Origin: Balanoglossus misakiensis
Lineage: Eukaryota; Animalia; Hemichordata
Direction: 5' to 3'
Assembly (NCBI GenBank): GCA_040954595.2
Contig: CM082577.2
Coordinates: 16,065,903 to 16,129,902 of the forward strand
Length of the DNA: 64,000 bases
Shown: positions 1 through 61,429 of the stretch, piece after piece
How the letters are laid out: every line of letters starts with the position of its first letter
Position numbering within the stretch: the stretch's first letter is position 1
The notes under the pieces: generated by a model
Databases searched by the model: none
Told to the model about the DNA's origin: nothing
What the model saw: the letters and a program-made list of their open reading frames with translations, nothing else
Translations under genes and position numbers: made by a program

Positions 1-860
1 GAAGCTACTTACATGTGGTGTGTTTATATTATTTTTCAAAAATAATATTTAACTTGTTCACATCTGTTATTTTACATATTTTACGTGTTTTTCTAATTTT
101 TACCTTGTGCATGTTTAGTACAATCTGGATTCAAAGGTATTCTTACGATGTAAATATTGACAGCCATTCCCTCTTCAACAGAAAAAAAAGGTCAGAAAAC
201 AAAATGGTGTGCCTCAAAGAAAGGCATGTGGGCTATTTCTGCAATGCAAAACGCTGAACTGGCAGTATGAACCACCAATTTGTCTACTTGGAAAGCAGCC
301 CAGATGTGTCACGTACCAACAACAACTCTCCAGAGAAGAGTCCAGGATGGTATATAGTCGGCTGAAAATACGGTTTCACCCCCCCCCCAAAAAAAATGCA
401 ACAAAAGGTTTCTCAACGGTTTTCTGTAGTATTGAATCTCCTTAATAACATATAAAAAGTCTACCAAAATCCGATGGCCGGAAATGTGTAATTTTTAAGG
501 TTTTACCCAAGATGGCCGACGCATACGTAATTTTCCATATTTTAGTATATTCTAATTTTCTTCGTTTTGAAATATATTGTATATCAATGACTTTTTAATA
601 CAATTATAGAGAAAAATTGGGTGTTCCTATGCAACTTTTTTTCAATAAGATGGTCTAAAACCTTGTAACAATGCTGAGTCAGCACTTTTCTGGCGCACTT
701 CATGCTACAGCTTTCCTATGCTGAAAATATCTGAACAGATATCTCAAAATGAAGCGTGATGACATATTATGTTCTTTTCATCATTAAATAACACTTCAAA
801 TAGAAAATGATAATATTAAAACGGTGTTTTCTCATAATTATGCATACAATGGTATGGTTA

Positions 861-1170
861 AGCAATAAAACACCCCCAGCCATGGTATACCACGAGATTT
901 TGACCAGTTCACGACATATACGCACGAGCGATAGCGAGTGCGTATATGGAGTTGAACTGGTCAAAATCGAGTGGTATACCATGGCTGGGGGTGTTTTATT
1001 GCTATTATATTATGCCAGTATATTGAAACTTTGCATAAAACATTTTAAAAAGGCATTTTCTTTGACTATGATATATGACTGTGGTATATGGCTAATATAT
1101 CACGGTCACGTGTCGTGTCTCGACCAATCAAATAGCGTGATTTACACCATCAATATACTGGTATAATATA
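861..1170 (+). mobile_element. Non-autonomous hairpin element, family 1 (terminal 143-bp hairpin 861-1003); possibly Crypton-like
   Basis: AGCAATAAAACACCCCCAGCCATGGTATACCAC (861) is the exact reverse complement of 971-1003. It is followed by TATTATATTAT, and the distal end has CTCGACCAATC...TATAATA, as in the copy ending near 26510-26550. The family name is inference. Confidence 0.7.
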
Positions 1171-2410
1171 ATATATGATAACCCATTGTCTGCTCGCACG
1201 GGTCATTGTTGGGAATGAGATCACTAAAAAGTGGTTGGAAAACCTATTTTAAGGATCTCATTCGAAGGGAAAGGCCTGGAAAAACTCATTACAGATGGGT
1301 TTACGATCAAATTAACCCATGTCCAAACCATCGATTGTGCTCCAGTTGTGTCGATAACTGGAAACCCTTCTCTCTAAAATTTACTGATTTACGAGGTCAG
1401 TATATGCTCCTCAGCTCTATTTGAAGTCAAAGAACTATTTTGGAAAGCCAACAAGCCCCAATTAACAAATCCAGAAGCTTAATTTTCAAAAAAGAATCAA
1501 ACAAATGTGCCATAGATTCTATCCTAACAGGTGATCACAATATCATTGACGGTGGTCCCCGGTTTTATTACTTGCCATGGAAAAGTGGTGGCAATTATTA
1601 CAATGGATAGTCATATACTAACTTTCCCATAAACCTTTATGATAAATCAACTGATCTAGGATGAACAATTAAGTATTTAAGGCAGGGGACTACTCAGATA
1701 TAGTGCATGATTATCATATCCCATTGTCTTACAAGATGTACAATTTTGAGAAAACACCGTTTTAATATTGTCATTTTCTATTTGAAGTGTTATTGCCATT
1801 TTTATGTTTTTTTACAAGTTCTCCATTAATTAGTTGCTTTTTACATTTTTACTTGAAATTGCATTTATTCTGCTTTCAACATCATTTCGGTATCTTAGTT
1901 AGTTATTTACTTGTATGTAAGGTCAATCAAATGTTATTTTGGCCCAATAGCATACTCCTTATGGTTTGTGTGTCTGGCCAAATTTCATAGTAGTTGTTTG
2001 GTAGTTTGGAGATCACATTGAGCACGAAACTTAGTTTTTGATAAACAACTAAGCACATACAGTTCTAGGCAACTTATTCTTATTTTTTCTGTCCTGCTTA
2101 CCCACTCATCCTGCATTCCCTTCAATGGGTATAATAATTTACTGACAGAGGTATTATTGAACTATTTTAGTAATATGAGTTGCAGTTTTAATTTTTTACT
2201 TTCCAAAAGTATATAAAATTGTCCTTTTCAAAGATATACATGTAAAATGTATGCACTTTACATTTGTAAAGATCTCTTGCTTTTTTATGGGAATTTTACT
2301 ACATCTATTACAAAAGTGACACTCATATTGGGTTTAGCATCCCTAGGTAATAGAATAATGATTATATACGTATAAATATGTTCATTTTATTTCTTCATTT
2401 TTTTTCAGAA

Positions 2411-2637
2411 CATTCACACTGGCTACCAGTGCATTTGATACACTGGGTAATTTCCTCACGGATATGAGGAGAGGTTTTGGAGGTGGGTTATTCACTTTTA
2501 GGGTGAATAAAGCCTCCTTCAACCAGTATTATTCACAGCTCGTTGATGAATTCCATGAAGGAGATGAACAGACACTTCACTACAGCAATGTAATTGGCCG
2601 ACAAGATAGTACAAGTTATGTGGTAGTAGGCAAAAAT
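2411..2637 (+). pseudogene. Isolated exon-like coding fragment (possibly N-terminal to a DUF927-like P-loop protein of a large mobile element)
   Basis: Polypyrimidine tract plus CAG acceptor at 2410, an open frame (...VIGRQDSTSYVVVGKN) and a GTAAGT donor at 2638. No partner exons recognised. Confidence 0.35.
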
Positions 2638-4894
2638 GTAAGTATTCCAAACAAATTCAATATAAATATTGATAATTTCATGAATATGTATATATTATAC
2701 AAGTCGGCGTGCGCGCTTTGAAGGTGACTGGTTTGCACTCTTGGGATCTTGAACCACGTTTAACAATGGAAACGCCAACAAAAAAGATGAAAACAAATTT
2801 GCCTTCGTCACCATCCAACACGATGGACATTTCAGGATATGCACACACAACATATCCCCGATTAAACATAGCAAAACTGGACGTGTGCAATACTTTAATT
2901 TCACACTGCAAACAGCGAAGAGTGAATACCATGAAGCAGTATGCTTCAGTCCTGACAAACGGAAGCAGGTTACCACCGTCGCTGAAAGCAAAACACCTGT
3001 AATGTTACATGCGGTAATGAAAACAGTAAAAGATGAAACAATGTGATTAAATGAAACCGATACACATGTACCTGTATGATTGTAGTTTTGTTCAGAAAGT
3101 CTTGGGAAATGTCATACTTTTACTTTTGACATCGATATCATAAGTACTTTGTACATAATAATAAGCGTGGGTTAAAATGATGTAATTTTCAGCATCCTGT
3201 ATGTAAAATTGTACTTGGTTTTGACACATCAACTTTGTACATTATAATAAGAGTTATGCCCGGAATATTGTATATTTAAGACCGGGTTTGTGATGTGTAA
3301 GGGAGAACCGATTTAATGTAACATAAGACTTGGCATGGTGCCCACAACTTACTTTCTGTGCAGTGCTAGTGAATTATGCAAAACTTCAGTTTAGTCAACT
3401 TAGACTCTGTTTATTGTATTTTAGGTCCCATTTGGTATATGTATGTATACCATATTGGGACCTTATCAGTGGCATAAGTATGTAGTTTCGAGCTTAATTG
3501 GCAAAATGGAAGAGGCCCTTCGTGCTCTAAACGATGACATTGAGCCCAGCTCCTGTAACTGTAGAATGTGGAGCTAGTCTCCTTCATAGAAAGATCAAAT
3601 TCTATTGAACTTATAAAGGAAAGCATGTAAAAACTTATTAATACAGAGGTCTCCTGTCCTTGAAAAGACATTTCACTGTAATTGCTCCCTGTGTTATCAT
3701 AATTCATTGGGATAATTCTTTTTTGTAGGGCCTTCATGTGAAAGCAGACAACGTCACGCAATACATGTGACCGCAAGACGTTCCAAGTGTTTTTACTTTG
3801 TTTTGATTCTTCTCACTCTTTCTGCTGTCCTTTTTTTTATTACTATGTTGATGACGTATTTTGGCCAGTAAAGTTTTTTGTAAGTTTCCTGAACTTGTAT
3901 CAAAATCTTTTTAGTTATTTGAGTTGGCTTTCCTTGATTTGCATGTGTATTATATAGTGTACATGTCATTGACATTTTATGGTCCAGTGTGATCAATATG
4001 GCTGTTGTGATGTGATCCAATATGTGTTCGAGATTGCCATTTACCTCCCAGGGTAGACACCAAAATTAACATAGCCAGGCGTGGACTGTGTCATCAACGA
4101 TGACTTGTCTTGGATAGTTGGCCAATCGAGGGAACATGTAGCAGATCACTTGGCTGCGAAGTTAGAATACTTACTATCACAATAGTCCAAGGGAGGAAAA
4201 ACAGTAGCAGAAATAACACTTATTTCAAACAATAGTTTGCAAGTATCTTAGCTTATATATTTTGCAGGGATATGTCAAATTTTCTATTTTTAGTGTTTTT
4301 TTGGTCATTTTTGATCAAAACAACTCTTGTGAAATTGTTAGACGGATAACTGGTTAATATAAATGGGGTGCTAAGATTTTCTTTCAAATTTGTTCAAACT
4401 ATGACAAAATGGACACTGATGTATTTTTGGGTAACTTTTGGTCATTTTGGTAAAAACATTTAATTCTCAGAAAGTGCTTGTCCAATTGCTTTGAAATTTG
4501 GTTTTCTGATTTAAGAAATGTCACCATTATCATGTGAAAACAAATGTTGAAACTATCAATTATATATCTCACAGCAATTTTGCCATTTTTGTCAAAACCT
4601 ATTTCTTTTCAATGGCTTGTAAGATTTCTTTCAAATTAGGCTTGCCAGTACCTAGAGGTGTCCTCATTGTGATGTCCAGTGTGAAAATATCAAGAGCCAA
4701 TTTTTTCCATTTTAGTATTTTTTCCCATTTGTCTGGTACATATAGCATTAAGTTTAAAAATAGGCATTCTATCATGCATTACAAAACCACAAAAAATACA
4801 GTTGATAAACACAACAAATGAGGATGATACCGAAATTCGGTGCTCCTATCCCCTAAACTACTTTATGAGGATTTGCAAAACATTACTTTTACAG

Positions 4895-5100
4895 ACTCCA
4901 AGAAAAGAAAGACTTGGACAAAATGGACAAAAGAAGAATCTGAAGCTGTTCTCACCTACTTCCAACAAGACATAAGGCTTCAGAAGGTGCCGGGAAAGGA
5001 CAAGTGTGAATCATGTCAAAAGGAGTATCCTATATTATGTGGGAAGAAGTGGTCTGACATAAAATATCATGTTTATAATAAGATAAAACGAAAAAAATGA
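4895..5100 (+). pseudogene. Terminal exon encoding a Myb/SANT-like C-terminal domain of the kind found in CryptonV-type tyrosine-recombinase proteins
   Basis: TTTACAG acceptor at 4894, then KWTKEESEAVLTYFQQDIRLQKVPGKDKCESC...KKWSDIKYHVYNKI. This matches the W-x2-EE...KVPGK-x2-C...W-x2-I/VK pattern I recall from such proteins. Confidence 0.5.
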
Positions 5101-5186
5101 TTATTCTAAAAGTTAACAGTGGGATCAGGGCATGAAATACTTTTTTGGCAACATGCACATTGTGATGCACCAGCAGACTTTACTTA

Positions 5187-5328
5187 AGCAATAACCTCCG
5201 CCGAAGGCAGGTATGCACGAGATTTTGGTACAATTCACGACATATAGCATGAGCCGACAGGCAAGTGCTATATGGAGTGAATTGTACCAAAGTCAAGTGT
5301 ATACCCGACTTCGGCGGGGGTTATTGCT
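5187..5328 (+). repeat. Long imperfect hairpin, family 2, with a partial tandem copy at ~5475-5592
   Basis: AGCAATAACCTCCGCCGAAG...CTTCGGCGGGGGTTATTGCT followed by ATTATATTAT. Homologous to 25862-25995 and 27319-27460. Confidence 0.8.
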
Positions 5329-5679
5329 ATTATATTATATCAAAATTTGTGTCTACGTCGTAATCCAATTCTGTGCAGGTTAGGTTTTGCATCAACATGC
5401 ACCAGCAGTGATATCGCCTATATAATGCAAATGAGCATCAACTGATTTATCAAAAATAAAGCCTATGTTGACAAGACTTTACTTAAGCAATAACCTCCGC
5501 CGAAGGCAGGTATGCCGGGGTTTTGGTACAATTCGCAACATATAGCATGAGCCGACAGGCGAGTGCTATATGATGGTGAGTGCTATATGGAGTTTTTGGA
5601 GTTTTTGTTTATCTTCTAATGAAAACAATGTATGTTGTTCATAGACAATGTAGAGTAGAGATTCAGTAAAGTAATTTAA

Positions 5680-6337
5680 GGTAGCTTTAGTTCATGGGGA
5701 CCTACTTGTAGACATGATTTTCAGCACTAAAACAGAGCATTAACCATATATTATATATCACATGAAAACTATTTTTACGAAATTTACAGCTATGGGAAGC
5801 AAAAGAGTGATTGACGAAATGCATTAATGGTTAATATCAAAACGTGTTGGAGTTAGTAAATTTACTTTTAAAAGTACAAATCAAGCCAGACTGGGGCAAC
5901 CATCAATATGTTAATGGTAGTTTACATTTCCTGATGGTGTCTACAGAAACTAAGTTTTCACGCAAACATTCACCAAATTTTGGCACCCCACTATTCTTAC
6001 AATGACTTTGACATCATTGGTGATAACTTGAGACTACGAAAAGTTATCTAAAAATGAGTTACGTTTTTAGACCATATGTTTGACAAGCCTGTGTGAAAAA
6101 TTGGTGGATTTGCGTTCATGCATTATTACGATATACTATTTTATATGAATTGCTAAGCTAAAATGACCAAGCGAGAAAAACTTATTTTTGTACGCGTTCA
6201 AGCAAAAAAGGTCAATGTTTTAGATTTTTGAGAGCGAGTGTACACTAAATAGAGCATCTGAGGGTTCTAGAAATAAGAGTTTGCAATGAAAACAGATCGT
6301 TTTTTTAACAATCCTCATATAAACATCTAAAGCTACC
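5680..6337. mobile_element. Kolobok-type MITE
   Basis: Perfect 11-bp TIR GGTAGCTTTAG/CTAAAGCTACC flanked by TTAA on both sides (5676-79, 6338-41). No ORF. Confidence 0.75.
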
Positions 6338-7904
6338 TTAATGTTCAATTTTCCTAGCTTTTAGGAAAACCAGAACTTAGTTCCGGCGTTGTTTGCATTT
6401 TATCTGATAAGGTTACTGCTATGTTACCTGGTGCTACCACCAGATGTAGGTAATTTTGAAATGCAGTTTAATTATGAATATTTGTTGTACTATAAACATG
6501 CAGTATTGATAGTTGTTCACTATATCTGATACTTTAAGCAAATTTCATATGAAATTTCAAAGTGACAGTGCTTGTCATCTGCATCTTTTGGCCATTTTAG
6601 TATTATATTTTGTATACTAAAACATTGGTGGTCGTCTGATGTGCATATGTGAGATTAACATTGTTTTGCTTGTTTACAAACAATGGAAACTACGGTAACA
6701 GGTCACTTCGACCCCTGACCATTTCGACCGCAGTGATTCACACCTCGGGGCATTCTTCTCTCTGTAAGGTGTTGCAAAGGCAGCCATTTTAAACAAAAAA
6801 AACGGCGTGCTGGTTTCTTTAGTTGGGTGGGGTTGCACCCACCTGAACATGCGCATTGGACAACCCCCCCCCCCCTTATTTAAAGTGGCGTGGTTTTCAC
6901 CTGCAACATTTGGCCATTTTCAGTATTATATCGTGTATACTTGAAGTGACAGTGCATGTCATCTGCATCTTTTGGCCATTTTTGTATTTGTTCTAAAGTA
7001 GTTCAAATAGTTGCAAGAACATTTATTGTTTTTTGATAAGTTCAAATAAAATGTTAGAATTATTGACATATATTTTTGTTTGTGTTATTTCAAGACTCAT
7101 CATAATTTACAAGAGGTACTTTAGGCCAAGAAAAGAGAAAGTTTGTTCCTCACCCCAGACATCTTACAAAAATGATGCGTTGATTCGTTAATTTTTACAC
7201 TCCATTTCTTAGTTGTCACACAATAGAAGTTAAACAACACGAAAACAACTTATGAATGTACGCAGAGATAAAAGTGCAGCAGTGATCAGTACACGGAATA
7301 TATTCGTCCGTTTTGATAATATGTATTGAGAAAGTCTTTGTTACAACCTGGAGAAAACATGGTCTCAACAAAGTCCTCCCATTGATACCAATACAAGATC
7401 TTTTAGATGGCGTCCTCTATTTGATAGTATAGAAATAGGTCCAAGAAATATCCATCAGATCCTTTTACTTCGGTGACTAGGGTATTTTATGCGGTTATTT
7501 GGATTCCATATCAAAAGCACGAGTCTGTAGATCATTGGGAAATGAGGGTCCTCAGAATCCCGGTTACGGGCTGGTTGAAGTTATGGTCCTCGTTAGGCAT
7601 GTGATGACGGTATGTATGTATGAATGTGTGTATGTGTGTTTGAGTGGGTGAATGAACTGACAAGCGTGTGCTCCAAATTAATTGCTACTAGGTGTACATA
7701 ATCATATGTTCAGTGCATGACATTGGTTGTTTGCGTTTAACTGGCCCAACTTGCTGCTCTTGGATATGATTAAAAATAATCCTGAGAATTCAACAGTGCG
7801 GCATTTAACTTGGTATTGTTCAACTGAACAATCTTTACCTGGTGGTCAAGGAAGATGGTGTCCATACATTATCTTACTATCAACACCAAGAAGTCAAGTC
7901 ATAT

Positions 7905-8500
7905 ATTGGTGACATATATTACTGACAGCTCCAGTCCATGTAAAGAGAAACACATATCCAAATCGGAGAAGAGGAACAATGGCACGCTATGTAACAGCTG
8001 ATGAGTTCCTCTACGAATTTGAAGAAAGGGAAGAAAGAAAGGAAAAGAGAAAAGGCAGGAGTCCAGGAAACAGGCGAGAGAGGAAAAAACAGCAGAAGCA
8101 GAAGGAAAAAGAAGAGAAGATGCTATAAAAGAAAAAAATACTCGAAATACTCAAAATGAAAGAGAATGTAGGCCTAAGTGCTGTGAATGTGAATGCTGCG
8201 AAGTCACTGTCGACTGGCCGTGCTGGTAAAGGAAAGTCTCGCACAAACAAGAGCAAAGGCAAAACGCTGCGTAAAAAGACAAACACTGAGCCAATTCCAG
8301 AATCAACCGTAGATTCACAACAGATGTACTCTGGCTACTGTCGTGGATATTACTATGATGATTCTAGTGAGGATGAAGATTGGTGGGTGCAGAAAATGCC
8401 CTAAGTGGTTCCACGAGTCCTGTACTGGAGTGTTTGGGGAAAGTAGCCTGGAACAGTTTTGCTGCGAGGATCACAGTAGCAGTGACGAGTGAAATGACAT
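7905..8500 (+). pseudogene. 3' remnant of a pogo/Fot1-like transposase with a C-terminal PHD finger
   Basis: ...ARYVTADEFLYEFEEREERKEK (charged coil), then YCRGYYYDDSSEDEDWWVQK/CPKWFHESCTG...FCCEDH across frameshifts. Confidence 0.55.
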
Positions 8501-10199
8501 GGTTTGACTTTGAGATTGATATATGGCAGTACCGTATGAGAGGGCAGGATGACCTTGCTGGTCCTTTCTTTTACTTTGTTCTGGATGTGTTGTGCTGTTC
8601 AGTGGCTCAATCGAAATAGGCATCACTACATGAGGAGGTTGATGCTGGCCAACCAACCCCCATACTGACACTGCTCCGGTATTAATATACAGGTATATTT
8701 AAACGAGAGGTCGATAATCTTAAAAAAAACTCAATGACAAAATCAAACAGCCCTTCAGTCATGTAAATCTTTCTGATAGAAAAACGAGACTTTTTACAGG
8801 ATTGCCAAACAAAAAAAAACTTTTGACAGTTTATTTGATAATGTCATTCGAAGTAAGGCATCGAAACTGAAATACTGGAGGGGTCCGAGCAAACTGTCAA
8901 CTAAGGTGTTGTCAGTAAAAAATCTTCTTTTCTAAAATTACTTTCCAAAGTCTTCAAAAAATCATTTGAGGGTGTGTATGATGTAGACAAGTGTTCATAT
9001 AATGTTGCAAACTTCTATTTGCGCGGCTTGCGCATCGTTCAGTGTTTCGGTTGCACTTTACCTTGAAATAAAACCTTGAACTCAAAAATAGTGTGGTTTT
9101 CATTTTATCATTCCCAACAAAGACAACTGTATCATCCTCCAATGGTCGCCAAACAGTCCAATGCACTAGTATCATTGTTTACAACGTGCCATCGCATTGT
9201 TACCTCAAATCACCTAACAGCTGGGACCGCATAACATACATCTTTCAATTTGGCAAAATACTTCCAAAATTTATCGTAACAACAAAGAGTTTTATTTTAA
9301 AATCACAATTCGCGGATCTATGTATGTGATAAAAATATAATTCCCCCGTATTCCTCACTCATGTACATGTGTTGTGAACTCGTGTATTAATTGAAATGGA
9401 ATTATATAATATAATAACATTAGACAGATGGATTGATGTGATGATCTGTGGGGTGTCTGCCTTCTCAAGTTTGGTTGTTGTTGCCAAAGTGTTTGATAGG
9501 GATAATTGATTTCACCAATAGCTTATACCTCAAATCAACATTTTCACCAATGGTTTTGTCTATGGCTAAAAATGTTTAGCAAAGTTTACCTCAAAATAGA
9601 GCATTGACCATAAGTTTACTGATGATTTTTATTATTTGACTCAGCTTTGTACTATCTTTCATGAAAACAACAATAGAAGGGGAAGGTTTTCTCGCCATTC
9701 TCCATGGGAAGTGTCACAGGCACAGTTTAACAGTTGACGTTCTGTGCTAGCATCCTTAATAAAAAAAAACTTTTTACTTGAGAACAACATTTGGTATGTC
9801 TGAAATGTAATAAGTTTTAATTGGCAGTTGCCCAGTAATATTTGCTCTTTCAAAAGAGGTTGATACTGGGAAGACTACAAGCCTTAATTACCTATGCCAT
9901 GTCTTCGGTTTGGCTGAAGGTTACTAGTATATCTGAAGCTGTCATGAAGAAGTTCTGAGTATGTCGACACTACAATGTGTTGTTGATGACATGGATTCGA
10001 AAAACAGAGTCAAAAAGTTAGCAGTCAGATACTTCAACGGGGGCACTCAAACAGACTCGCATGGAACATACACTTCTATTACTACGTTCTTGTGCTCTGC
10101 CAACTATTCTTTGGGTGAAAATGCAAGGTAGGTGATATATATATATATTTGTATTTACTATTTTCACTTATTTTTTATTTACTAATATCTTTAAAAGGC

Positions 10200-10811
10200 T
10201 GGCAACACGGTGTCTGTTGTATGCATGTTCTGAACTTACAAGTTACAAGCGATCACTCAATACCATCGTGAAATTTCAGAGAGCTGCCAAGAAAATGTCT
10301 GGCACACTTGCTACTGGCACACTTGCTACACCTGAAAGAGTTGAAATGGATTTCAGCTGGGCTGTCTTATTGGCGTTCAATGCTGAAGATATCAAAAACT
10401 ATCTACAGAAGTCTTGGGACATAATTAATCGTAAATGTAAGACCCTCACATCATTCATGGTAACACACATCTGTGCTTCCCGTTTTATCCCATGCCATCA
10501 GCCGAAATCTGGTGAAGAAAAGCCCTGAAAACGCTCTACAGAAGTTCATGTTATTTGTTACAGGCCTGTTACAGAGCTGTACCAGCCTAAATGAAGCAAA
10601 TGAAATTGTTCATCACATCACTGTGGTTTCAACATCACAATGGCGCACAGCTACAGTGGAAGCAAGCATGGTAAGGTTAAAAAACTGGATAATGAAACTG
10701 ACTGATGTTGACCCTGAAACTACTGAGGCGACAATGCAAACTACATTTAGTTCATTTCATATAACATTCCTTATTCCGCTACTACTCGAACGCAAGATGT
10801 CTCAACTATAA
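10200..10811 (+). pseudogene. MULE/NOF-FB-like transposase fragment (second copy ~12106-12717)
   Basis: PERVEMDFSWAVLLAFN...YLQKSW...THICAS resembles the DFSWAL...FN...YL...HLC-x-H segment of NOF-like Mutator transposases. Frameshifted. Confidence 0.5.
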
Positions 10812-10964
10812 ATTATAAATCTCTGTTAATGTAGCTGCCACCCATAATGTGCTTCACACCAACACAAGAGTATACAGAATTCAACCTGGTGATATCATTT
10901 AACTTCGCCAACAAATCTGCTTATGTTAATTTAATGCATCTTCTTTACATTCTCCATCTATTAG

Positions 10965-11580
10965 GTAACTGTCCTGGGCAAAGTCGTACATGGTCCAACA
11001 AAAACTGAGAAGACTACAAAAGATGGCAAACAGCTGTATTTAACCAAACATATTATTGCTGATAAAAACAACACAATCGAGGCAAACACGTGAGATTCAG
11101 ATACTGCTTTGCAGACAGGTAGCTCTTACAAATTCCAATATGCCACAATGAAATCATTTGATGACACGAAAAATATGCTTCTCAAGTTCTGTCAAAGAGA
11201 ACAGAGATTCTTGAAATTAGTGATATTGGACATGTACAAGACCATACAGCAGAACAAACCCGTAACCAAAGTACAGTTGGTGGTACATTCTCAGTCCATG
11301 CTAACTTCAATTACCACTGTACATCATGTAAAAGAATCATTTCCAATGTGCCCCCCTGTGCTACTGTTATCAGATGTGAATCGTGTAAAATGAAACAAAA
11401 ATGCCAAGAGTCTTTTACCACACGTGACTATTAAAATACAAACGACATGAAATTCAGTGTTCCCCATTCAGTTATGGATGATTTCTTGAAAAGGATCAAT
11501 AAATCGCACCTGCTCACAGATCCTGAAGACATAGAGGATTATTTTGCTCACTGTTGAAATGGCTATCAGATTACAGCATT
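10965..11580 (+). pseudogene. Decayed OB-fold/RPA-like coding fragment with a Cys-rich ribbon (second copy at +1906)
   Basis: VLGKVVHGPTKTEKTTKDGKQL...IIADKNNTIEANT*...GSSYKFQYATMKSF followed by CPPC...RCESCKMKQK. The fold call is inference. Confidence 0.4.
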
Positions 11581-13580
11581 CTAATAGCCATGTTGAGTAC
11601 ATGCAGTTTGTCTCTCAAACTACTTCAAACTAATTTGTTTTGATGATATCTAAAAGATTTGTTCTCTTCAACAGATGCTCCAATGGGTATAAGATGCACA
11701 GATACACAGGAAACAAAGAGATAACAAATCTGAACAGTCAAATCTGTGAACAGACGAATGCTTCCATATCTAGAATCAAAGTACAACTATCAATTACCTA
11801 TGCCATGTCTTCGGTTTGGCTGAAGGTTACTAGTATATCTGAAGCTGTCATGAAGAAGTTCTGAGTATGTCGACACTACAATGTGTTGTTGATGACATGG
11901 ATTCGAAAAACAGAGTCAAAAAGTTAGCAGTCAGATACTTCAACGGGGGCACTCAAACAGACTCGCATGGAACATACACTTCTATTACTACGTTCTTGTG
12001 CTCTGCCAACTATTCTTTGGGTGAAAATGCAAGGTAGGTGATATATATATATATTTGTATTTACTATTTTCACTTATTTTTTATTTACTAATATCTTTAA
12101 AAGGCTGGCAACACGGTGTCTGTTGTATGCATGTTCTGAACTTACAAGTTACAAGCGATCACTCAATACCATCGTGAAATTTCAGAGAGCTGCCAAGAAA
12201 ATGTCTGGCACACTTGCTACTGGCACACTTGCTACACCTGAAAGAGTTGAAATGGATTTCAGCTGGGCTGTCTTATTGGCGTTCAATGCTGAAGATATCA
12301 AAAACTATCTACAGAAGTCTTGGGACATAATTAATCGTAAATGTAAGACCCTCACATCATTCATGGTAACACACATCTGTGCTTCCCGTTTTATCCCATG
12401 CCATCAGCCGAAATCTGGTGAAGAAAAGCCCTGAAAACGCTCTACAGAAGTTCATGTTATTTGTTACAGGCCTGTTACAGAGCTGTACCAGCCTAAATGA
12501 AGCAAATGAAATTGTTCATCACATCACTGTGGTTTCAACATCACAATGGCGCACAGCTACAGTGGAAGCAAGCATGGTAAGGTTAAAAAACTGGATAATG
12601 AAACTGACTGATGTTGACCCTGAAACTACTGAGGCGACAATGCAAACTACATTTAGTTCATTTCATATAACATTCCTTATTCCGCTACTACTCGAACGCA
12701 AGATGTCTCAACTATAAATTATAAATCTCTGTTAATGTAGCTGCCACCCATAATGTGCTTCACACCAACACAAGAGTATACAGAATTCAACCTGGTGATA
12801 TCATTTAACTTCGCCAACAAATCTGCTTATGTTAATTTAATGCATCTTCTTTACATTCTCCATCTATTAGGTAACTGTCCTGGGCAAAGTCGTACATGGT
12901 CCAACAAAAACTGAGAAGACTACAAAAGATGGCAAACAGCTGTGTTTAACCAAACATATTATTGCTGATAAAAACAACACAATCGAGGCAAACACGTGAG
13001 ATTCAGATACTGCTTTGCAGACAGGTAGCTCTTACAAATTCCAATATGCCACAATGAAATCATTTGATGACACGAAAAATATGCTTCTCAAGTTCTGTCA
13101 AAGAGAACAGAGATTCTTGAAATTAGTGATATTGGACATGTACAAGACCATACAGCAGAACAAACCCGTAACCAAAGTACAGTTGGTGGTACATTCTCAG
13201 TCCATGCTAACTTCAATTACCACTGTACATCATGTAAAAGAATCATTTCCAATGTGCCCCCCTGTGCTACTGTTATCAGATGTGAATCGTGTAAAATGAA
13301 ACAAAAATGCCAAGAGTCTTTTACCACACGTGACTATTAAAATACAAACGACATGAAATTCAGTGTTCCCCATTCAGTTATGGATGCTTTCTTGAAAAGG
13401 ATCAATAAATCGCACCTGCTCACAGATCCTGAAGACATAGAGGATTATTTTGCTCACTGTTGAAATGGCTATCAGATTACAGCATTCTAATAGCCATGTT
13501 GAGTACATGCAGTTTGTCTCTCAAACTACTTCAAACTAATTTGTTTTGATGATATCTAAAAGATTTGTTCTCTTCAACAG

Positions 13581-13800
13581 ATGCTCCAATGGGTATAAGA
13601 TGCACAGATACACAGGAAACAAAGAGATAACAAATCTGAACAGTCAAATCTGTGAACAGACGAATGCTTCCATATCTAGAATCAAAGTACAACTATCATA
13701 CATGCTGCCTGATAATTTCATCTTTCATGCTGCTCTATTTCTTGGTCTTACCAATAAAAAGGTGACATACATTAAATGCCACACTACTATAAAAGGCTAG
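13581..13800 (+). pseudogene. C-terminal exon of a KDZ/HMGXB3-like (CxC5/CxC6) transposase; truncated copy at 11675-11791
   Basis: CAACAG acceptor, then CSNGYKMHRY...LNSQICEQTNASISRIKVQLSYM..DNF..FL..TN, matching the NSQxxEQxN motif of this family. Confidence 0.55.
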
Positions 13801-19909: not shown

Positions 19910-20168
19910 GATGATGGTATTGGCCGAGGTAATGGCGTAGATGTTTGGACATCATTACAAGGACGTCCGCGCCATTTCTGGATGTTAACTGGAGAAACCA
20001 TTCAATCGATGGAAGCTATTATACATGACCTGGAACCGAATTTTATTCGTCATCTTGCCATGGATTCAAGAAATCATTTTCTTCTCACTTTTATTTGGCT
20101 ACGGCATTTATTCTACTCTAGACTTACTGGCAGAATGGTTTGTGGTAAGCAACACGACTGTTCAAAGT
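19910..20168 (+). pseudogene. PIF/Harbinger (ISL2EU-like) transposase N-terminal HTH fragment
   Basis: FWMLTGET...RNHFLLTFIWLRH/YSTLDLLAEWFVVSNTTVQ across one frameshift resembles HTH_Tnp_4. It is cut off by the hairpin element at 20170. Confidence 0.55.
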
Positions 20169-20213
20169 GAACACCTATTGCCTGGCCATGAGGGCCATAG
20201 CGGCCGTTTATTA

Positions 20214-22110
20214 TGGAGTGTAATTCATTCCAAGATTAGCACCCAGCTTTTCGATGAGAGTACGTCAGCTTTTCGATGAGAGCACCCTCTTTTCGATGAG
20301 AGTACGTCAGCTTTTCGATTAGAGTATTCACTTTTCGATGAGAACACCCTCTTTTCGATGAGAGTACCTCAGCTTTTCGATTAGAGTATTCACTTTTCGA
20401 TGAGAACACCCTCTTTTCGATGAGAGTACCTCAGCTTTTCGATAAGAGCACCTAGCTTCTTGATCAGAGTTACCATCCCACTTTTCGATCAGAGTACCCG
20501 CTTTTCGATCAGAGCACCAAGCTTTTCGATGAGAGTATTCAGGTCTACTGGGGTGGGCTTAGGGGGTCTTATAGCGGTGACCCGGAAGTTTAAAGTTTTG
20601 AAACTTTGACAGTGTGGACGCCCAATTTGTTTGCCGTTGCGTCGTGGACGTAGCCCAGTGATCAAATGCACGGGTTGGATTTTACAAGAAAATACTTGTG
20701 TCCGGGGCCGCACTTGCGTTTGTGTGTCTCTGGGGACGCCAAGAATGCATATGCTTCTTTTTCTAATTTGAATATTTTAAATGGGTTAATTTAATGCTTA
20801 CAAATTGATACATTTTAGGTCTGCTTTGACTGGAACGCGTCAAGTGTACATGTTGTTATGGAAGTTTATTTTAGAACCGCTCGTGGCTTGCCCTTCAAAA
20901 AAAAGCTTCTGTCATTTTTTGGCTGTCCGATCGGGCAAGTATTTAATGTTGACAATTTACTTGCCGTGTATCATTATATAGTTGCTCCGGGCAATCGGGC
21001 GAAGCTTAATTTCGACCCCTGTTAAATAAATATACAAAACTCTTAAGCCCTAGTAACTAACTTTAAGCGATTTTTCAACTGTTTTTTTTTTCTTTTAGAA
21101 TTTGTTTTCTTCGCGCAGACGATTCATGCCAAACTGCTACAGTGAATATACGCGCGCGCACAACGAAACCACAAAAGATCGAAACCTCAAAATGCGGCAG
21201 CAACTGACACTATTTCCTTAAATACCACAAGGCGGGGAGGCATGAATTGCAATTAAGATAATAAAGAAATTTCGACAATGATACTGTGTTGTGTGAGTTA
21301 CATGTGTTTCTATATATAACTACTACTCTTACCCCCCATCAGTGTTTGACCCTCGAAAGCTTACGGACACTACTGCTTTGTTTCAACTAATCCTTCGCCC
21401 TGTGAATATACTCGTACATTGACCTTTTGGGGCGGGATTCTTTTTTGGCGCGCAACCACTAGTACCAGGCCCCAGACCAGGAACTGGCGACCCGCCGTTT
21501 GTTTCCAAATTTGTTTCTAATGTTGAATTTCCGAGAAAACAATTTATCTGACCTGTAGTTTTCTTGGCTCGCTTACGTTTTAATTTGGAAACTTTTAAAA
21601 AAATCATACGCCACCGTCTTGATGACTGGCCCCTACTTTAATAATGGTATCGCCATGTTTCGTTGTTTCGCGGTTTCGTTGTTTCGCAAAGTATAACTAG
21701 CTCAGATTCCATGAACTCGAGATTCTATGCTATTTTCCTCAATCTACTGGCCGGCGTTTCCCACGCACATGGTCAAAGTTTGACCTTCCGGTTTACTGAT
21801 CTCCCTAGCATATTACTATTAATTTGATGGAAATTCCAGTGACGCGTTGTGACGTAGCCATGACGCGTTGTGACGTAGGCAAAACGCCAGCGGGCCGAGT
21901 TGTAAAAACTCTTCAGTGAACTAGGCGTCTGGGGTGCTCTCATCGAAAAGAGGGGCGCTCTTTAATCGAAAAGAGGGTGTTATCATCGAAAAGCTGAGGT
22001 ACTCTCATCGAAAAGAGGGTGTTCTCATCGAAAAGTGAATACTCTAAACGAAAAGCTGACGTACTCTCACCGAAAAGCTTGGTGCTAATTTTGGCATGAA
22101 TTACACTCCA
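20214..22110. mobile_element. Non-autonomous TIR DNA transposon with inverted subterminal minisatellites
   Basis: TIR TGGAGTGTAATTCATTCCAAGATTAGCACC / GGTGCTAATTTTGGCATGAATTACACTCCA with TA on both sides. 20-22-bp CTTTTCGATGAGA repeats lie at 20245-20540 and, inverted, at 21935-22080. Confidence 0.85.
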
Positions 22111-22112
22111 TA

Positions 22113-22280
22113 GTCCTACGGCCTCGGGAAATAGCATATGATTCTGGTAACTCAAAGCCACGAGGGGGTAAAAACGGCTGCTATGGCCCGAATATAGGCC
22201 AGGCTATAGGTGTTTTATAATAAACCTCATGCTAACAGTTTGGGAAATCATGCAATTTTCTCTTGAGGTTGGCAGACGAC
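22113..22280 (+). repeat. Right arm and flank of hairpin family 3 (left-arm start at 20170-20213)
   Basis: Homologous to 54100-54250. 20170-20213 matches 54004-54046. Confidence 0.85.
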
Positions 22281-25423: not shown

Positions 25424-28400
25424 TTATTTGTGCTGGTCAAAAACTGGTCGAAATTTTTTTACAAAAAACTTAAACTTTTTTGAAGTTTCATGGGTCAATG
25501 GTTCCCCAAATACAAAAAGCTGGAAAAATCCCAACATCATTGCATAGCATTTTGGGTAGTCTAAATCAAAGATGTAATAAATTGACATCAATTGCATCAG
25601 ACCTGCTGTAATGCTGTTGCTCTGGCACTTTATGCTGACAGTATCTCCAACAATGTATATGCCGGTAACATGCATGTTTTCTCTGAACAGTACGATATGG
25701 GGTGGCAACATGTCCTTGGTTTTTAGCTTTTCCTTGATGACTCTATCTTCAATATCCTGCGTGGAAGACAAGGAAAATTATAAGTAATATTATTTATAAA
25801 TATAAAGCAAGAGTTAAGATATGCTTGTTCAAGACACATAAGCAGACTAATAACATATTTAAGCAATAACCCCCGCCGCAGGCATACACGAGATTTTGGT
25901 ACAATTCGAGACATATAGCACGAGCCGTAAGGAGCTATATGGAGCGAATTGTACCCAAATCGAGTGTATACCCGACTGAGGCGGGGGTTATTGCTATTAT
26001 ATTATATCAACAATTGATTTTTGTTGCATATCATTGTAGAGTGTAAAATATAAAATATGCTCGACCGCAGTTCCTGTCTTCTGAATGATCTTTATTTAGA
26101 TCGAGCATATTTTATATTTTACACTCTGGGTCGAGCATATTTTATATTTTACACTCTGTTCTACGTCCGATGTGCTCCCACCTTCCGCTGAAAACTTCGA
26201 TAGTTGTAGTTGGACTGACTTTCCTACCTATCCTTTATATCATTGTAGTTTTCTTAACGAAACAGCGTGCCCGAGCGGCCCGGGATCGAGCATTCAACAT
26301 GAAGCAGATGACAAAAGTGACAAAAGTGAAAAAAATTCAGAGCAGAGCAGTTCCAAAATAAAATGTTATTAAATTCAAGTATTTTCTGTTATTTATTTGG
26401 TTTAATCTCGTGCGACTGTGGTTTAACCGCACATTTTCCCTGTTGCATGCTAGTTCAGGGGCCCGTTTTACCACTGCCAGCAGTGGTAAAACAGTATTTT
26501 ACCATCGCTCTCGACCAATCCGAATCGCGGACAGTAGCATGATAAAATATATTATATTATATATATATATATTATATAATAGCATGCTACCGTCCGCGAT
26601 TCTGATTGGACGAGAGCTATGGTAAAATACTGTTTTACCACTGCTGGCAGTGGTAAAACGGGCCCCTGAACTAGCAAGCAGCAGGGAAAATGTGCGGTTA
26701 AAGGGACAAAGTCTCTGTGTCGCTGCCCTTTTTCCATTAATTATATTTGATACAAGACACCGTTTATATTATTCTACATGTGGATATATAGTGATTCAGC
26801 ATTCAACTACACACAACTTCCATCCCACTTGCAGACACGTGAGTGAAAAACTCGCCAAAATGAATAATCGGTGTTTACCTTTTATTCATTTTAGTGGGAC
26901 TTTTACTCTCATATGCTACAAACGGGATGGAAGTTGTGTGTGGTTGAACGCTGATTCACTATATATCCACATGTAGAATAACATAAACAGTGTCTTGTAT
27001 CAAACATAATTAATGGAAAAATGGCAGCGAGAGAGAGACTTTGTCCCTTCAAACCACAGTCGCGCGGGATTAAACCAAATGAATAGCATAAAAACACTTG
27101 AACTTACGAACGCTTTATTTTGGTACTGCTCTGCTGTGAATATTTTGCACTTTTGTCACTTTTTGTTGTCTGCTTCGTGTTTAATGCTCGATCCCGGGCC
27201 GCTCGTGTTTACATTCACCGTCGCCATGTTGGTTCACGATCATAATTTCTCTTTCTGACGCCGTTTCGGTAAGAAAATGACACTGATATGCCACAAAAAC
27301 AACTGTTGATATAATAATAGCAATAACCCCCACATCAGTCGGGTATACACTCGATTTGGGTACATTTCGCTCCATATAGCACTCGCCTAACGGCTCGTGC
27401 TATATGTCTTGAATTGTACCAAAATCTCGTGTACACCCGCCTGTGGCGGGGGTTATTGCTTAAATATTATTTTTATTACTCGAGTCAATCTGAATATGTA
27501 TGTTGCTATTTAAAACACAATGGCAAGTGCTGTTTGGTGATTTTTTTCAGTTTTTGTTTTGTGTCTTAAATGTTCTAGTCCCAAATGCATGTTAGGACCT
27601 TGTGTCCAGCTACATACAAATAGTACTGAGTTGGACTGAGATCACTGTGTACTTACATCAAACACTTCAATGATACTTCTGAAATGTTGAGTATTCTTTC
27701 CACCACGGTCAAATTTGGTTTCTTTCTCAACAAACTGTACAATCTCCAATATTATACCAGGATCCTGAAAAAATACAAGATCAAGTGATTCTTAAATACT
27801 CTGACAGGGTAATTTGGCATATTTTTGTATCTGGACAACAATGTACATAATACAATCACACTATGTTTGCTTCAACATGACAACAAGCCTAATAATCATT
27901 TCACCACCAGGATTTGATGCATCTCACTGCTTTGATAAGAATGCCGGATTACATTATGCGGTATGTAAGATACAGTCAAACCTGTTTTATTGGCTACTTT
28001 GTACAGTCCTTGTGCATTTTACATTTCCATTTATTGACCTGTCTACAAAGGTCAGTATGGGAAAGTCTCTTGACAGTCCAATATAGAAAGGTTTGACTGT
28101 ACATGTAATAGGGTTGACAGGGTTCAGGAAACTATGTCCATCAACCAATAAAGCACCCTACTCTTGTGGTTGATGCTGCTACAAAATCTGAAATCATCAG
28201 TACCACCAATTAATATGTTACTTACATCTGTGCTGTCTCCTTCATCCACAGTTTTCCCTGTCATGACCATACTTGTTGCAATTACTTTCTTCATTTGTTC
28301 AGATATTTCTTTTAACCTTTCATTACCAAATCTGACAGCAAATTCAAATAACACCTGTTGGATGGGAGGAAAAAACGTTACAAACAGTGACACAGTGGGT

Positions 28401-41150: not shown

Positions 41151-41233
41151 CGGTCATCATAAAGACAGTAAGTGGGCGACCTGGAAAGGATTGGAGTGTG
41201 TTTCTCGTCATTCAGCACAACCGGACAACAGGC

Positions 41234-53090: not shown

Positions 53091-54003
53091 GTGAGTAGAT
53101 GAGGATTGTGCGGAAACAGTGACACACCAGAATAAAAATTACATGTGACATTGCAAGCAGATATGATCTTATGATATAGAAATATGGAATGTAAAAAAAT
53201 TAACAAAGAACATGCTCAATAAACTGTCATGTGTCATGTCAGTCTTACAAGTGGTGCGAGAAAAATTATTTTTTGACAAAAAATTGTCTGTACAAACACG
53301 TATGAGAAGCAATTTCTTTCAGTCAGCCCTGGAACAGACAGACAGACACACACACACACACTAACCTGCCACTGGTAATTAACAATTTAATAGCCGGTGG
53401 TCTCTGTAACAGCTGGCCTATTAAAGTTATGTAAACATGTCTAAGTTGGGGGTCACAACTCCTTGTAAACAGTAACTTTCAAAACACAGCTAGAAAATTG
53501 GTTTAGGAGAAGATTTGCTAACCAAAAACAAAGAAACTTACAAAAAAACTCGCTAAATATTGAATATTTCTGATATCAGAATTGAATAAATGTTGCACAT
53601 ATACAAGGAACATGCCTGCAAAAGGTCAATGCAATATGACAAGCGGTTTCAGAGAAAACAATTTTTGACAAAAATTGCAAAAGTTTCCCCGATAACACAT
53701 TTATGAAAATATCACATTTTTTTTACAACATTAAGATTGTCAAGTTTTTTATCCTAAAAGGACCACCTCTATAATTTATTAACTCTGGTGTCGACAGTAG
53801 AACTAGGGCCTAATTATATGGCCTAAAACATTAACGTCGAATGCAATCGAAAGTCAACAAAGTATTGAGCTATACCGTTACCCCTTGAATAGATTCACGT
53901 GGACAGCAGTTAATTTGCCACATTTTTAGACAAATGAGCGAAATTCACTTTTCAGCTAACCACGTTTGAAATATTTATGCACCCGCTCAGCATTAGGCTA
54001 TTG

Positions 54004-54250
54004 AACACCTATTGCCTGGCCATGAGGGCAATAGCAGCCGTTTATTACACCCGAGGGGCTGTGAGTTACCAGAATCATATGCTATTTCCTGAGGGTCGAG
54101 GGAAATAGCATATGATTCTGGTAACTCACAGCCACGAGGGGGTAAAAACGGCTGCTATGGCCCAAATATAGGCCAGGCTATAGGTGTTTAATAATAAACT
54201 TCATGCTAACAGTTGGGAAAATCTTGCAATTTTCTGTTGAGGTTGGCAGA
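54004..54250 (+). repeat. Hairpin family 3 (185-bp hairpin 54004-54188 plus flank)
   Basis: AACACCTATTGCCTGGCC...GGCCAGGCTATAGGTGTT with a long perfect core GCTGTGAGTTACCAGAATCATATGCTATTTCC. Homologous to 20170-20213 and 22126-22276. Confidence 0.88.
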
Positions 54251-57858: not shown

Positions 57859-58808
57859 TTAAACACAGATATAAGTTGTGATACAGCAGATGAGGTACAA
57901 GTGCCACACCCCTCTTTTGCTTGTTTCTTGTCTGGGATCTATTGTTAATATATCCATGAAATATTGGTGCATGTTCCTGTAGTTCCACCATGGCTGCTTC
58001 CCAATTAACATTTACATGGCATTCTGAACCTATACAAAAATAGAGAAATTATGCTGAATAAACACTTGATACGGGATGAAGATCCTAAGAGCATTATTAG
58101 AACATAATAACAAATCAAGGTCACACACTTGGAAATATCAACATAGCCTGCATGTACTGATTACATGTGACAAATGAATTCAAATCAAGATTACACTTCA
58201 ACTGTCAACAATTACATAGTGATTGCAAACATACCATGCTTTTTGGTGTTAACCAAGAAAATGTACTTGTAACAAGGAATAAAACAATAGTGACAAAAAT
58301 AGCTAAACATTTCTGATACTGCATCTCTGTTTTTTGTATCCGTTTATGATAGTTTTACAATCATTATTGGTACCTGTGTAGCGAAAATTTGATGGGTGAC
58401 CAGATGAACAAATCTGACTGACTTCTCTAGTGATTGTTCGATAAACTTCTGTCATAATCCCTTCTTTCAATGGAGCTATGCTTAATAGTTCCCTGCTTAC
58501 ACTCTCATTTGATGTCAAGACCAATTTCTTGATAAGGTTTTGCAGATTGATATCTATAGTGAAAGTTCTTACTCCAGAATTGGGAAACTTGAGAGAAACC
58601 TAAAAATTAAATATATGTGAATGTCAACATATTTATGCATTATTATACATCCGTACATACAAGCTGTACGGAATGGTACGTACGGAACGCGTGTTAAATA
58701 CGCCTAATGTTTCAAGGTGCCCCAACTCACTGTGTACAGTTATGCGCTGTTATGCGGATGGTTTCAAGACACCCCCACTCCAACGCGCGTAAACAAAAAA
58801 GAAAGATG

Positions 58809-59589
58809 CCCTTATGAAAATATAGGCCTTGCCGCGATATATTGCAGCAGCTCTTCAGCAGGTTTGCTGCAGCTCTACAGCAGGTAGACGCAGCAGAGCC
58901 GATTTTTCGCATGAAAATTAGGTGATTCTGCAGAGCTGCCGCAGAGACTGCCGCATCCTTGCCGCATCCAGTACATACGCTACAGAAATGCTGCAGCCCT
59001 GCTGCACTGACAGCTCTGCAATAGGTTTGCTGCAGCTCTCCAGCAGTGGAGATGATCAGTGTCTTCTGCTGTACCTCCGTGTTGGCTTCTGGTACATCCA
59101 AAAGCATTAAATGAAAGGCAGTCCACCTGAACATACTCATGACCTGGCAGCTAGCTGGAGACACTTGTAGTTTGAAGCTTGCAAGTTTAGAAAATGGCGG
59201 CAAAATGACTTTGGCCAATTACTAGCTTTGTTTCACATCACCTGATATCAATTAAGGTCAACCAAAGTTGGAGATCATAAAAAAGGATAATTATTGTGTC
59301 CCTGCTGCATGGATTTGTACTTTGCGAATTATTCTTGCATCATTTCTGCATAGAGAAAAGCCTTGCATCTTTGCGGCTACTTTGCGGCAAGCTCTTGTGT
59401 CCTTATTGCAGGGATTACCACCTCTACTGCAGAGCCACATTTAGTTGCGACCTGCCGCATTGCCTCTGCTGCAGAGACACTCTCTGCGAGAACACCACAG
59501 CGTGTCTGCAAGAGCACCACAATGCCTTCACAGCAGAACTGCTGCAGAGCTGCTGTGGAGCTGCTGCTTTGTGGGCATTTTTGTAAGGG
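58809..59589. mobile_element. CMC/EnSpm-like MITE with CTGC/GCAG subterminal repeats
   Basis: Termini CCCTTATGAAAAT / ATTTTTGTAAGGG with a 2-bp TG duplication. Confidence 0.75.
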
Positions 59590-59698
59590 TGGCTGCTCAC
59601 TGAGTCAACTGAGCGGTTTTCGATCGCTTGTATGGCGTTTTGAAAGCCAAGTAACATGCAACACAAGAACTAACAGAGATGTAAGATGTATAATAATA

Positions 59699-59827
59699 AG
59701 GTTATTACAAAAATACCGCAAAGTATGCACTCAGACAATAGCGCACGGCATTGCCCTCCGCTACGCGTCGGGCGATACATGACGCTAATGTCCTCTTGCA
59801 TACTTTGCCGTATTTTCGTAATAACCT
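59699..59827 (-). repeat. Hairpin family 4
   Basis: AGGTTATTACAAAAATACCGCAAAGTATGCA...TGCATACTTTGCCGTATTTTCGTAATAACCT. The apex on the minus strand is GCCC-GA-CGC-GTA-GCG-GA-GGGC. Confidence 0.85.
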
Positions 59828-61429
59828 CATAATATCACTTTCAGCTTGTGCATGTCAATTGCAAGATCTTGTTATACTTCATGAATGTCCTAACAGGGTC
59901 TTCCAAATTCCAACTTGACATTTGAATGACCTTCTCGAACTTTCCAAATATTTTCGGAATATATACAACTATGAAATAACAATGTCTTGTGACAACTGGG
60001 TACTGGGGATTTAACTGTTCCAATTAATGCATATTAGCCATAATATGTAGCATTAACTTGTTAAACATTGATCAATCTGACAATCTGATTGGTTCCACCA
60101 TGGAGCACTCTCAAAGCTGGGTACCTCATTTGCATGCATAATTAGGGGTTTTATTTCAAATGAAGGACGCCCTATTCTCATTATCGGTGACCGTTCGACG
60201 ATTTTTCAGCGCAGAAAAAATCGTCAAAATACAGTTTGAAAGGTGAGTGATTCTCATGATTTTGGTATCTTCCAAATGTTTAAGGTCTCCGGTTTCGCCC
60301 ACGAAAAAAAATTGTGAAAATGACGAGTATTTTTTGAAACATGGGTTAAATACAAGTTTTGTAGGCCTGTGTACACGGCCTGATAAAACACTGCGTCATT
60401 TTCGTTGGCAAGCCATTTTTTTCGTTTAAGTAACTGTTTTAATCCGTTTTGGACATTTATAGTGAGAAAATGTATGGTTGTAGGGTGTTCTTGATCGTTA
60501 CTCAAGGAAGACGTACCTCTGAAGTTAGGTCAGTCGATCGGAGAATTTCGCGTAATCCAAAATGGCGGCCAGTGTTAACAGTGTGCACAGCACAGCCCTA
60601 GCCAAACCAAACCGCGAGGTGTGGCATTGCACGATTGTGTGCATTCGGCATTGTCTTTGCGAGCGCTTGTTGCGAGTTTTTTTCTAAACGGTAGTTTTCT
60701 GTGCCTTATTTTGCAGATTGTTAAAGTAACCAATTCGGCCAGTACAGATGTGTACGTGGATCAACATTTGAATTAGTCATAGACCAGTATTTTCTCTTTT
60801 TAATGACAGTGTTGATTGAGAAAGTATTCCTGTAATATTCAAATATCAAATATATCATTTGATTGTGGATGATATTTGATTTCATTCAAATAAAATGTTG
60901 GAAAGAAACGTATTTTGTTGGAAAAGGAGAGTGTGTGGATCACTGGCATTGAGCATATCCAGTAAGGAAGCTTAATTGCTAAAATTCCATAACGTCTGTT
61001 GTGCTGCTGGATATGTTTCCCAACAGGAGTTAAACCTTACTGCAACAAGACTTCTCATGTGGAAGGCATCTTCCTGTACTAGTAAGTTGCAGAAGTGGCA
61101 TTTTAATCTGTTTATCCGGTTTGTGGCTGAAAGAATTCGGTTTTCAGAAGGAAAAGGCAGATTTCTGTGAAAGATTCCATGCGTGTGAAAAAGCATCTTA
61201 GCAGTGTCTGTAAAACCTACCACAGTGTCTCAAAAGCAGTTGAACATTGTCAGAGACTCCGCTGTCAAGGAGTCCTAAATTCAACCCAGATTGCAAAGTG
61301 TGTCAAAAACACTTTCCTAGTCAAGGAAAAGACACTGATAAACAAAAGATTGATGCAATTACGCAGTGGAAATAAACATAGCACATCCCTTTTGCTTACA
61401 CATATTGAAGCCCGACTGTCAAAGTAGAA

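Follow-up and report, generated by a model that had tools for sequence, protein, structure and literature searches.

The stretch of DNA analysed here, called the window in what follows, comprises 64,000 nucleotides of contig CM082577.2 from the hemichordate Balanoglossus misakiensis (assembly GCA_040954595.2, positions 16,065,903 to 16,129,902 of the forward strand), and this report concerns the long-hairpin elements of four families that lie within it. The window is animal DNA with many transposon remnants, including Gypsy and BEL frames and DUF6589 frames with RecQ-type helicase frames. The family-1 element, which carries no gene, covers 314 bp at 858..1171 of the plus strand and consists of a long 5′ hairpin (861..1003, +), the inner arm of an asymmetric inverted repeat (1004..1026, +), a CCAATC box about 45 nt ahead of the 3′ end (1124..1129, +) and the terminal arm of the same inverted repeat, which forms the 3′ end of the element (1150..1172, +). 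The first-pass annotation had taken the hairpin as the whole unit; it proved to be only the 5′ part of this element.

The limits of the family-1 element were determined from the contigs that a single sample gave in two runs (X1 and X2), placed on positions 500-1500. The summed contig depth in X1 was 1.7e5-5.7e5 in the bins 874-1179 as compared with about 100-400 beside them; contig depth gives no copy number, and the step is still about 1,000-fold over the flanks. Loose contig ends accumulated at 858 and 1180. An empty site, that is, a contig joining 857 to 1172, was recovered in both X1 and X2, and the X1 record of 458 nt holds 329 letters of one side after the first 100 and 29 letters of the other side. 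Because this join occurred in both runs with nothing between its two sides, the limits were set at 858-1171; one letter at the join is assignable to either side, and 859-1172 is equally possible. The family-1 element is therefore polymorphic, and its insertion into GG|TA produced no target duplication, as read from one empty site of this family only. Position 1129 was alone among the variants listed at a frequency of at least 5% inside the element, so the GA loops described below represent the family consensus and are no accident of this copy. The body of the element also holds a second, small hairpin with a 14-bp stem (1076-1109). In two further runs, X3 and X4, labelled as a different organism (organism B), two family-1 pieces of 137 and 203 nt with 100% identity and low depth fell on 864-1173, one of them continuing into a different right flank; either recent horizontal transfer or contamination would account for these pieces.

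The 861-1003 hairpin, whose right arm has one additional, bulged T, gave a DNA fold of -71 kcal/mol (z ~ -18) that none of 200 shuffles equalled. Three interruptions at which both arms read GA had been claimed for its stem, and alignment located all three, at 894-895/969-970, 913-914/949-950 and 926-927/936-937, together with the tip GC-GATA-GC. Two of these loops stand in the context CGAG/CGAG, an arrangement described as giving sheared pairs in tandem within hairpins of DNA (PMC10085684), and the middle loop reads CGAC/GGAG. To compare strands, each hairpin was read on the strand that places the TATA-type repeat after it, independently of GA. Read in this way, the six window hairpins contain 12 two-by-two loops, of which nine are GA/GA, two GA/AA and one CA/AT, TC/TC being absent. 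When four hairpins of loci fetched in the search described below were added (L003 and L016 being excluded as duplicates and L021 for its deleted right arm), GA/GA occupied 11 of 17 such loops on the anatomy-defined strand, again with no TC/TC. For a single loop the chance of GA/GA is about 0.01, and a hairpin with GA/GA at all three of its loops has a chance of about 1e-6, although the loops are not independent, families 1 and 2 sharing ancestry. A control scan for caps with other dinucleotides returned seven for AA and four for GA and did not discriminate. The tips found were GATA, GACA, GTTA, GTA, GAA and GCA, none of them a GNRA loop, and the tips GCGATAGC and GCGTAGC match the GCGNNAGC and GCGNAGC types, which as DNA form highly stable mini-hairpins containing a sheared G-A pair and are far weaker as RNA (PMC13037366).

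Such hairpins might also be read as palindromic miniature inverted-repeat transposable elements (MITEs) whose mismatches arose from RNA structure, from escape from palindrome instability or from a protein site in direct repeat. Tandem GA pairs do stabilise RNA as well, and interrupted palindromes are less fragile, as is generally known. Against this stand the tips, which are not GNRA loops, and the absence of any Rfam match to the hairpins at gathering thresholds; escape from instability, moreover, gives no preference for one type of mismatch. Neither hallmark of DDE-type MITEs was present, as the two termini are not inverted repeats and the target is not duplicated, and we regard this explanation as extremely unlikely.

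A TATTAT-type motif had been reported after every hairpin, and this was the case; the motif turned out to be an inverted-repeat arm whose partner is the far end of the element. In family 1 the pairing between 1004-1026 and 1150-1172 is complementary at 22 of 23 positions, the exception being a G-T pair on the plus strand. The inner repeat corresponded to the far end in all six elements in which both were available (family 1, family 2 twice, family 4 and the fetched loci L006 and L021, over 23, 12, 8, 10, 11 and 14 nt, respectively), the two family-2 matches being short and AT-rich. The CCAATC box near the 3′ end was present in five elements (family 1, both full family-2 copies, L006 and L021). 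When 858-1172 was folded as one strand, the predicted structure was a dumbbell (z ~ -20) in which two helices lie on a continuous splint and the 5′ and 3′ ends are adjacent, and in the element closed to a circle the junction was paired except for 2 nt. Read on the other strand, this layout of terminal repeat, subterminal repeat and hairpin is that of non-autonomous Helitron2/Helentron-type elements, which are moved by an HUH RepHel protein and share with the present elements the asymmetric inverted repeats, the hairpin at one end, insertion without duplication and, as proposed here, a single-stranded intermediate (PMC3627910). As described in the same source, however, those elements use T-run targets and repeats of 8-15 bp with the inner one 20-30 nt from the end, whereas here 146 nt separate the inner repeat from the end, insertion was into GG|TA with no T run, and the same ends flank a tyrosine recombinase rather than an HUH enzyme in L021; a Helitron2 origin is thus very unlikely.

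Families 2 and 4 have the same layout as family 1. Family 2 shares 74-76% identity with family 1 and was found as a copy at 5184..5350 (+), comprising a hairpin at 5187-5328 and the inner repeat with its far end not located, as an element of about 700 bp at 25859..26551 (+) with its hairpin at 25862-25995 and a (TA)n run at its end, and as an element of about 900 bp at 26570..27463 (-) with its hairpin at 27319-27460, placed tail to tail with the preceding copy. The GA/GA layout is largely kept in family 2, as had been proposed, with some decay: the 5187 hairpin has GA/AA and TGA/AAG at two of its three loop sites, and the 25862 hairpin has partly lost its tip. The 27319 copy lies on the minus strand. 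A partial local duplicate of the family-2 hairpin at 5483..5590 (+) retains the tip GA-GCC-GACA-GGC-GA. The pair at 25859-27463 meets at the (TA)n run and forms a 1.6-kb foldback, and the AT-rich ends of the two elements may attract further insertions. The family-4 element (58642..59835, -) has a hairpin at 59693-59833 with the minus-strand cap CCC-GA-CGC-GTA-GCG-GA-GGG and a 10-nt inner and terminal inverted repeat, and about 790 bp are inserted in it at 58801-59590. Family 3 (53999..54250, +) comprises a hairpin at 53999-54193 and 57 more shared bases; its start is at 53999 and not at 54004 as first given, and the GA/GA claimed for it stood for one clean loop, beside one GA/AA and a damaged tip. 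Families 3 and 4 had been described as apparently unrelated in sequence to families 1 and 2, in agreement with blastn, which gave no match. Depth in X1 reached 4e4-6e4 for family 3 and 2e4-3e4 for family 4 as compared with 20-100 in unique stretches.

A second family-3 copy with a TC-flipped tip is split into 20168-20213 and 22122-22276 (20168..22276, +) around another insertion, an element at 20214-22121 with terminal inverted repeats and subterminal arrays of 20-22-nt repeats. Broken DUF6589 and RecQ-type helicase frames, presumably Academ-like, occur in two sets at 49202-56768. Family 3 was considered as the end of a DUF6589 element, and this was rejected, as the frame is cut near 54250 and continues into a shared repeat.

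The ends of these elements were then used as a search pattern that fixed only the two hairpin feet. The pattern occurred at four places in the window as compared with none expected, and in three contig collections it retrieved 51 loci, including seven hairpin elements, five of them distinct. All nine hairpin-opening ends read TTAAGCAATAA, the search having fixed TAAGCAATAA alone, and CryptonA recombinase sequence was present in two of the seven hairpin elements as compared with none of the 44 other loci. By collection, 28 of the 35 matches in metagenomes were by chance, the 15 matches in genome contigs included no hairpin element, and the single match in viral contigs was a chance one inside a gene. 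The viral contigs likewise gave no match to a family-specific pattern, two matches to a tip pattern, neither with a long hairpin, and no locus with recombinase queries from 39 and 38 candidate stretches; an additional pattern had no match across the first 53 loci. The element of L021 is 2,115 bp long and has the same 5′ end, the left arm, the GA-GCC-GCA-GGC tip, the inner repeat, the CCAATC box and the 3′ end. Between its ends lies an intact frame with matches to DUF3504 (E=3.7e-8) and Phage_integrase (E=9.7e-7), its match to the QRICH1 family (7.2e-6) falling under the cut-off of that family. The catalytic residues R, H, R, H and Y are present, with R145, R288, H296 and Y305 invariant in 60 aligned sequences. 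The protein has 443 homologues, among them sea-anemone and coral proteins. A profile built from 120 homologues matched L021 and an N-terminal fragment beyond the hairpin of locus L034 (E=8e-6), a fragment with no Pfam match that is assigned by this profile alone, and none of the 44 chance loci matched it. A sequence search of the PDB gave a best match of only E ~0.4.

In both L021 and L034 the recombinase gene lies on the TC strand and reads toward the hairpin, and because of this its mRNA would not carry the GA code. Since the tips do not conform to the GNRA type and are found on the opposite strand from the mRNA, the GA code is most simply read as selection acting on one DNA strand. The link of the window families to the L021 enzyme, made by end design, is firm for families 1 and 2. 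It is weaker for family 4, which has the layout and tip in common with TTAAGCAATAA-type elements and not the terminus, and open for family 3, which has a terminus different from the TTAAGCAATAA type and no far end located. The CCAATC box of L021 (~2235-2312) is on the opposite strand, some 70 nt upstream of where the recombinase starts, and may be a promoter element of this gene. Locus L006 holds a gene-less element of the same anatomy (3-1232) with an inner hairpin at 514-651 and a cysteine-rich frame of 165 codons, which has no Pfam match and which we take to be THAP-like, as well as another long hairpin with a different terminus (1658-1832) and the cap GA-CGC-GAA-GCG-GA on its minus strand. 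A second tip pattern retrieved 21 prokaryotic loci from the viral contigs, none with the CryptonA recombinase; eight of them (L055, L057, L058, L059, L060, L065, L066 and L073) carry palindromic repeats resembling repetitive extragenic palindromic (REP) sequences with the cap CC-GA-CGC-GNA-GCG-GA-GG. The idea that such caps mark phages with single-stranded DNA failed for L057, which holds a tailed-phage head cluster, and four L058 proteins had no match.

Taken with the empty site, these results make it very probable that the window hairpin elements, which are short, gene-less and high-copy, are non-autonomous CryptonA-type elements. The earlier suggestion of a Crypton-type recombinase stood in so far as the same ends surround a DUF3504 gene in L021, which is from another animal, and no target duplication is seen at the empty site. 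CryptonA elements are already known together with their gene-less derivatives, three families being from the acorn worm Saccoglossus, with published lengths of 1.2-2.3 kb (PMC3212892 and its supplement 1). The likeness to them lies in the DUF3504 gene of a 2.1-kb element with the same ends, in abundant gene-less derivatives and in the lack of a target duplication; the present elements differ in the 140-nt hairpin, the asymmetric inverted repeat and the one-strand GA code. In the parts of that paper available to us, no terminal repeats are reported for animal Cryptons ('n.d.' in all eight CryptonA rows), direct repeats of 4-6 bp as in fungal elements are not reported for CryptonA, and 'palindrom' is absent from the text (Kojima and Jurka 2011, PMC3212892). 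Eulor5 and Eulor6 were assigned to Crypton through their termini and, like the salmon Crypton-N1_SSa and the salmon CryptonA-N2_SSa, are gene-less Cryptons known by termini conserved across distant animals (Kojima 2018, PMC5753468); they differ, as compared by description and not by end sequence, in that neither 'hairpin' nor 'palindrom' occurs in the main text. The accessible text of the Glomhopper paper similarly gives no repeats around a fungal CryptonA and lacks 'hairpin' and 'single-stranded' (PMC13465315).

Judging from the design of their sequence, we consider that, by a narrow balance, these elements are likely to be recombined in trans by a CryptonA enzyme as one folded DNA strand. 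The GA strand, once single-stranded, would fold quickly at its GNA or GNNA mini-hairpin tip and zip through sheared tandem G-A pairs, while the opposite strand would be left with unpaired TC/TC loops. Pairing of the 5′ end to the hairpin foot, and of the 3′ end to the inner repeat, would bring both ends onto one continuous splint, and the recombinase would then seal them to give a closed single-stranded dumbbell whose junction would be a duplex with a 2-nt bulge. One exchange of strands with a double-stranded, AT-rich target would follow, and its resolution through host replication would leave an insertion without duplication. Self-splinted closure and a single exchange are favoured because the element holds an internal complement of its joined ends, shows no duplication and is associated with a tyrosine recombinase. 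In broader terms, animal CryptonA may be a eukaryotic system of single-stranded-DNA site-specific recombination in which a structural code persists from cnidarians to fish despite the turnover of sequence, a proposition for which we find the balance even.

A number of observations weigh against recombination as a folded strand. The 2-nt junction bulge forms on either strand, so the junction itself picks no strand, and the predicted fold of the L021 protein (predicted local distance difference test score, pLDDT, 80.6) is nearest to QRICH1 and Cre, with the integron integrase ranking 40th. Both the strand-neutral bulge and the Cre-like fold would suit the classical CryptonA route through a double-stranded circle and two strand exchanges, in which the inner repeat would be an extra binding site and the hairpin an extruded accessory. 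The excised circle is the published, if tentative, model of Crypton movement (PMC3212892). This route leaves unexplained why GA/GA and DNA mini-hairpin tips recur on one strand across unrelated arms and why the element contains its own complement of the joined ends, and fungal F/S-type Cryptons have terminal direct repeats of 4-6 bp that are absent here, the family-1 junction having one letter only; we hold it to be possible and rather doubtful. The GA sites begin 33 nt from the hairpin foot, beyond the usual recombinase core, and this distance from the crossover would suit a copy-out scheme in which the recombinase frees one strand as a circle, priming or second-strand synthesis starts at the protected GA hairpin, and the double-stranded circle integrates. 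Mini-hairpins are present at priming sites of phages and plasmids and are poorly bound by single-stranded-DNA-binding protein (PMC13037366), and some bacterial elements circularise one strand by tyrosine recombinases (PMC9345347). The splint for the joined ends would, however, be useful in the first step only, and copy-out appears unlikely.

Further points count against the folded-strand reading. No recombinase was found in the window with the 120-homologue profile in all six frames (best E=0.57), and the likeness of L021 to the window elements is confined to the ends. The one-strand bias asserted by the first-pass annotation is real and not absolute: at 22118 the split family-3 copy carries TC at its tip, around the loop TAC, L016 and L026 have a TC/TC tip in a rearranged side hairpin outside the count of the aligner, and the L034 hairpin has lost its GA/GA loops. 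Single mismatches were G-T in 12 and A-C in seven of 39 cases, a weak bias. The compensatory stem changes proposed between families 1 and 2 do exist, a Watson-Crick pair being kept at substitutions of the left arm in 6 of 11 and 5 of 9 cases, but this covariation is modest and copying from arm to arm could mimic it. Contigs were compared as 31-letter words, with which an inversion of the complete hairpin about its foot cannot be phased. An exact 1171-to-858 circle join was absent among the contig joins listed, where contigs drop rare forms, and two end-to-start joins carry 11 and 21 extra letters. The single-stranded route is what we infer from the sequence design.

The combination of a tyrosine recombinase with an internal complement of the joined ends resembles the internal complementary region of DIRS retrotransposons, which are named in the Glomhopper paper (PMC13465315); DIRS differs in using RNA and a reverse transcriptase, and there is no sign of either here. 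The nearest functional parallel is with integron attC sites, where recombination takes place on one folded strand (PMC2727003) and where a tyrosine recombinase, a structure kept amid sequence drift, the choice of one strand and unpaired bases are all found (PMC2727003, PMC3458562). Replicative resolution, which we infer for the window elements, would be shared as well. The differences are that IntI reads extrahelical bases, whereas sheared GA pairs would be the strand marks here, that the present site is built from the joined ends of the element itself, and that the L021 enzyme model shows no greater likeness to IntI than to other recombinases and is not of IntI type. Strand-biased circularising integrative elements (SE) also have tyrosine recombinases that circularise one strand only; they are bacterial, have four genes and, in the text available, their authors detected no folded attC-like site (PMC9345347). 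Our literature search, which left Repbase and Dfam entries, figures and subscription papers outside its scope (these may describe hairpins), gave no account of this GA end code or of a single-stranded-DNA route for Cryptons.

The transposon family is thus a known one, and its end architecture with the GA code points to a putative mechanism. The anatomy sets the ends, gives a 314-nt substrate and predicts the strand used and the bases that matter, which opens the mechanism to tests with oligonucleotides and one protein. If the proposal is true, a tyrosine-recombinase route through folded single-stranded DNA would join the eukaryotic DNA transposons, and a structural rule would be at hand to classify many unassigned palindromic repeats. 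It would also bear on the ancestral DNA preferences of domesticated DUF3504 proteins (ZMYM2/3/4, QRICH1 and KCTD1) and offer a one-protein integrase for single-stranded DNA cargo that acts without duplication.

As for other features of the window, Pfam gave no family on six-frame readings of 1-14400. A frame of 837 codons at 30171-32684 (-) looks intact and has no Pfam family above cut-off; we assume a resemblance to CACTA-type transposases. The decayed frame at 62439-63428 (-), with no Pfam match, is presumably related to Polinton-type DNA polymerases. A high-depth repeat at 56890-57870 has its two ends inverted (GGTCCCATG...) and a 392-bp part that is optional, and a BEL/Pao element at 35936-47637 holds a nested Gypsy element with 226-bp direct repeats (40906 and 46471).
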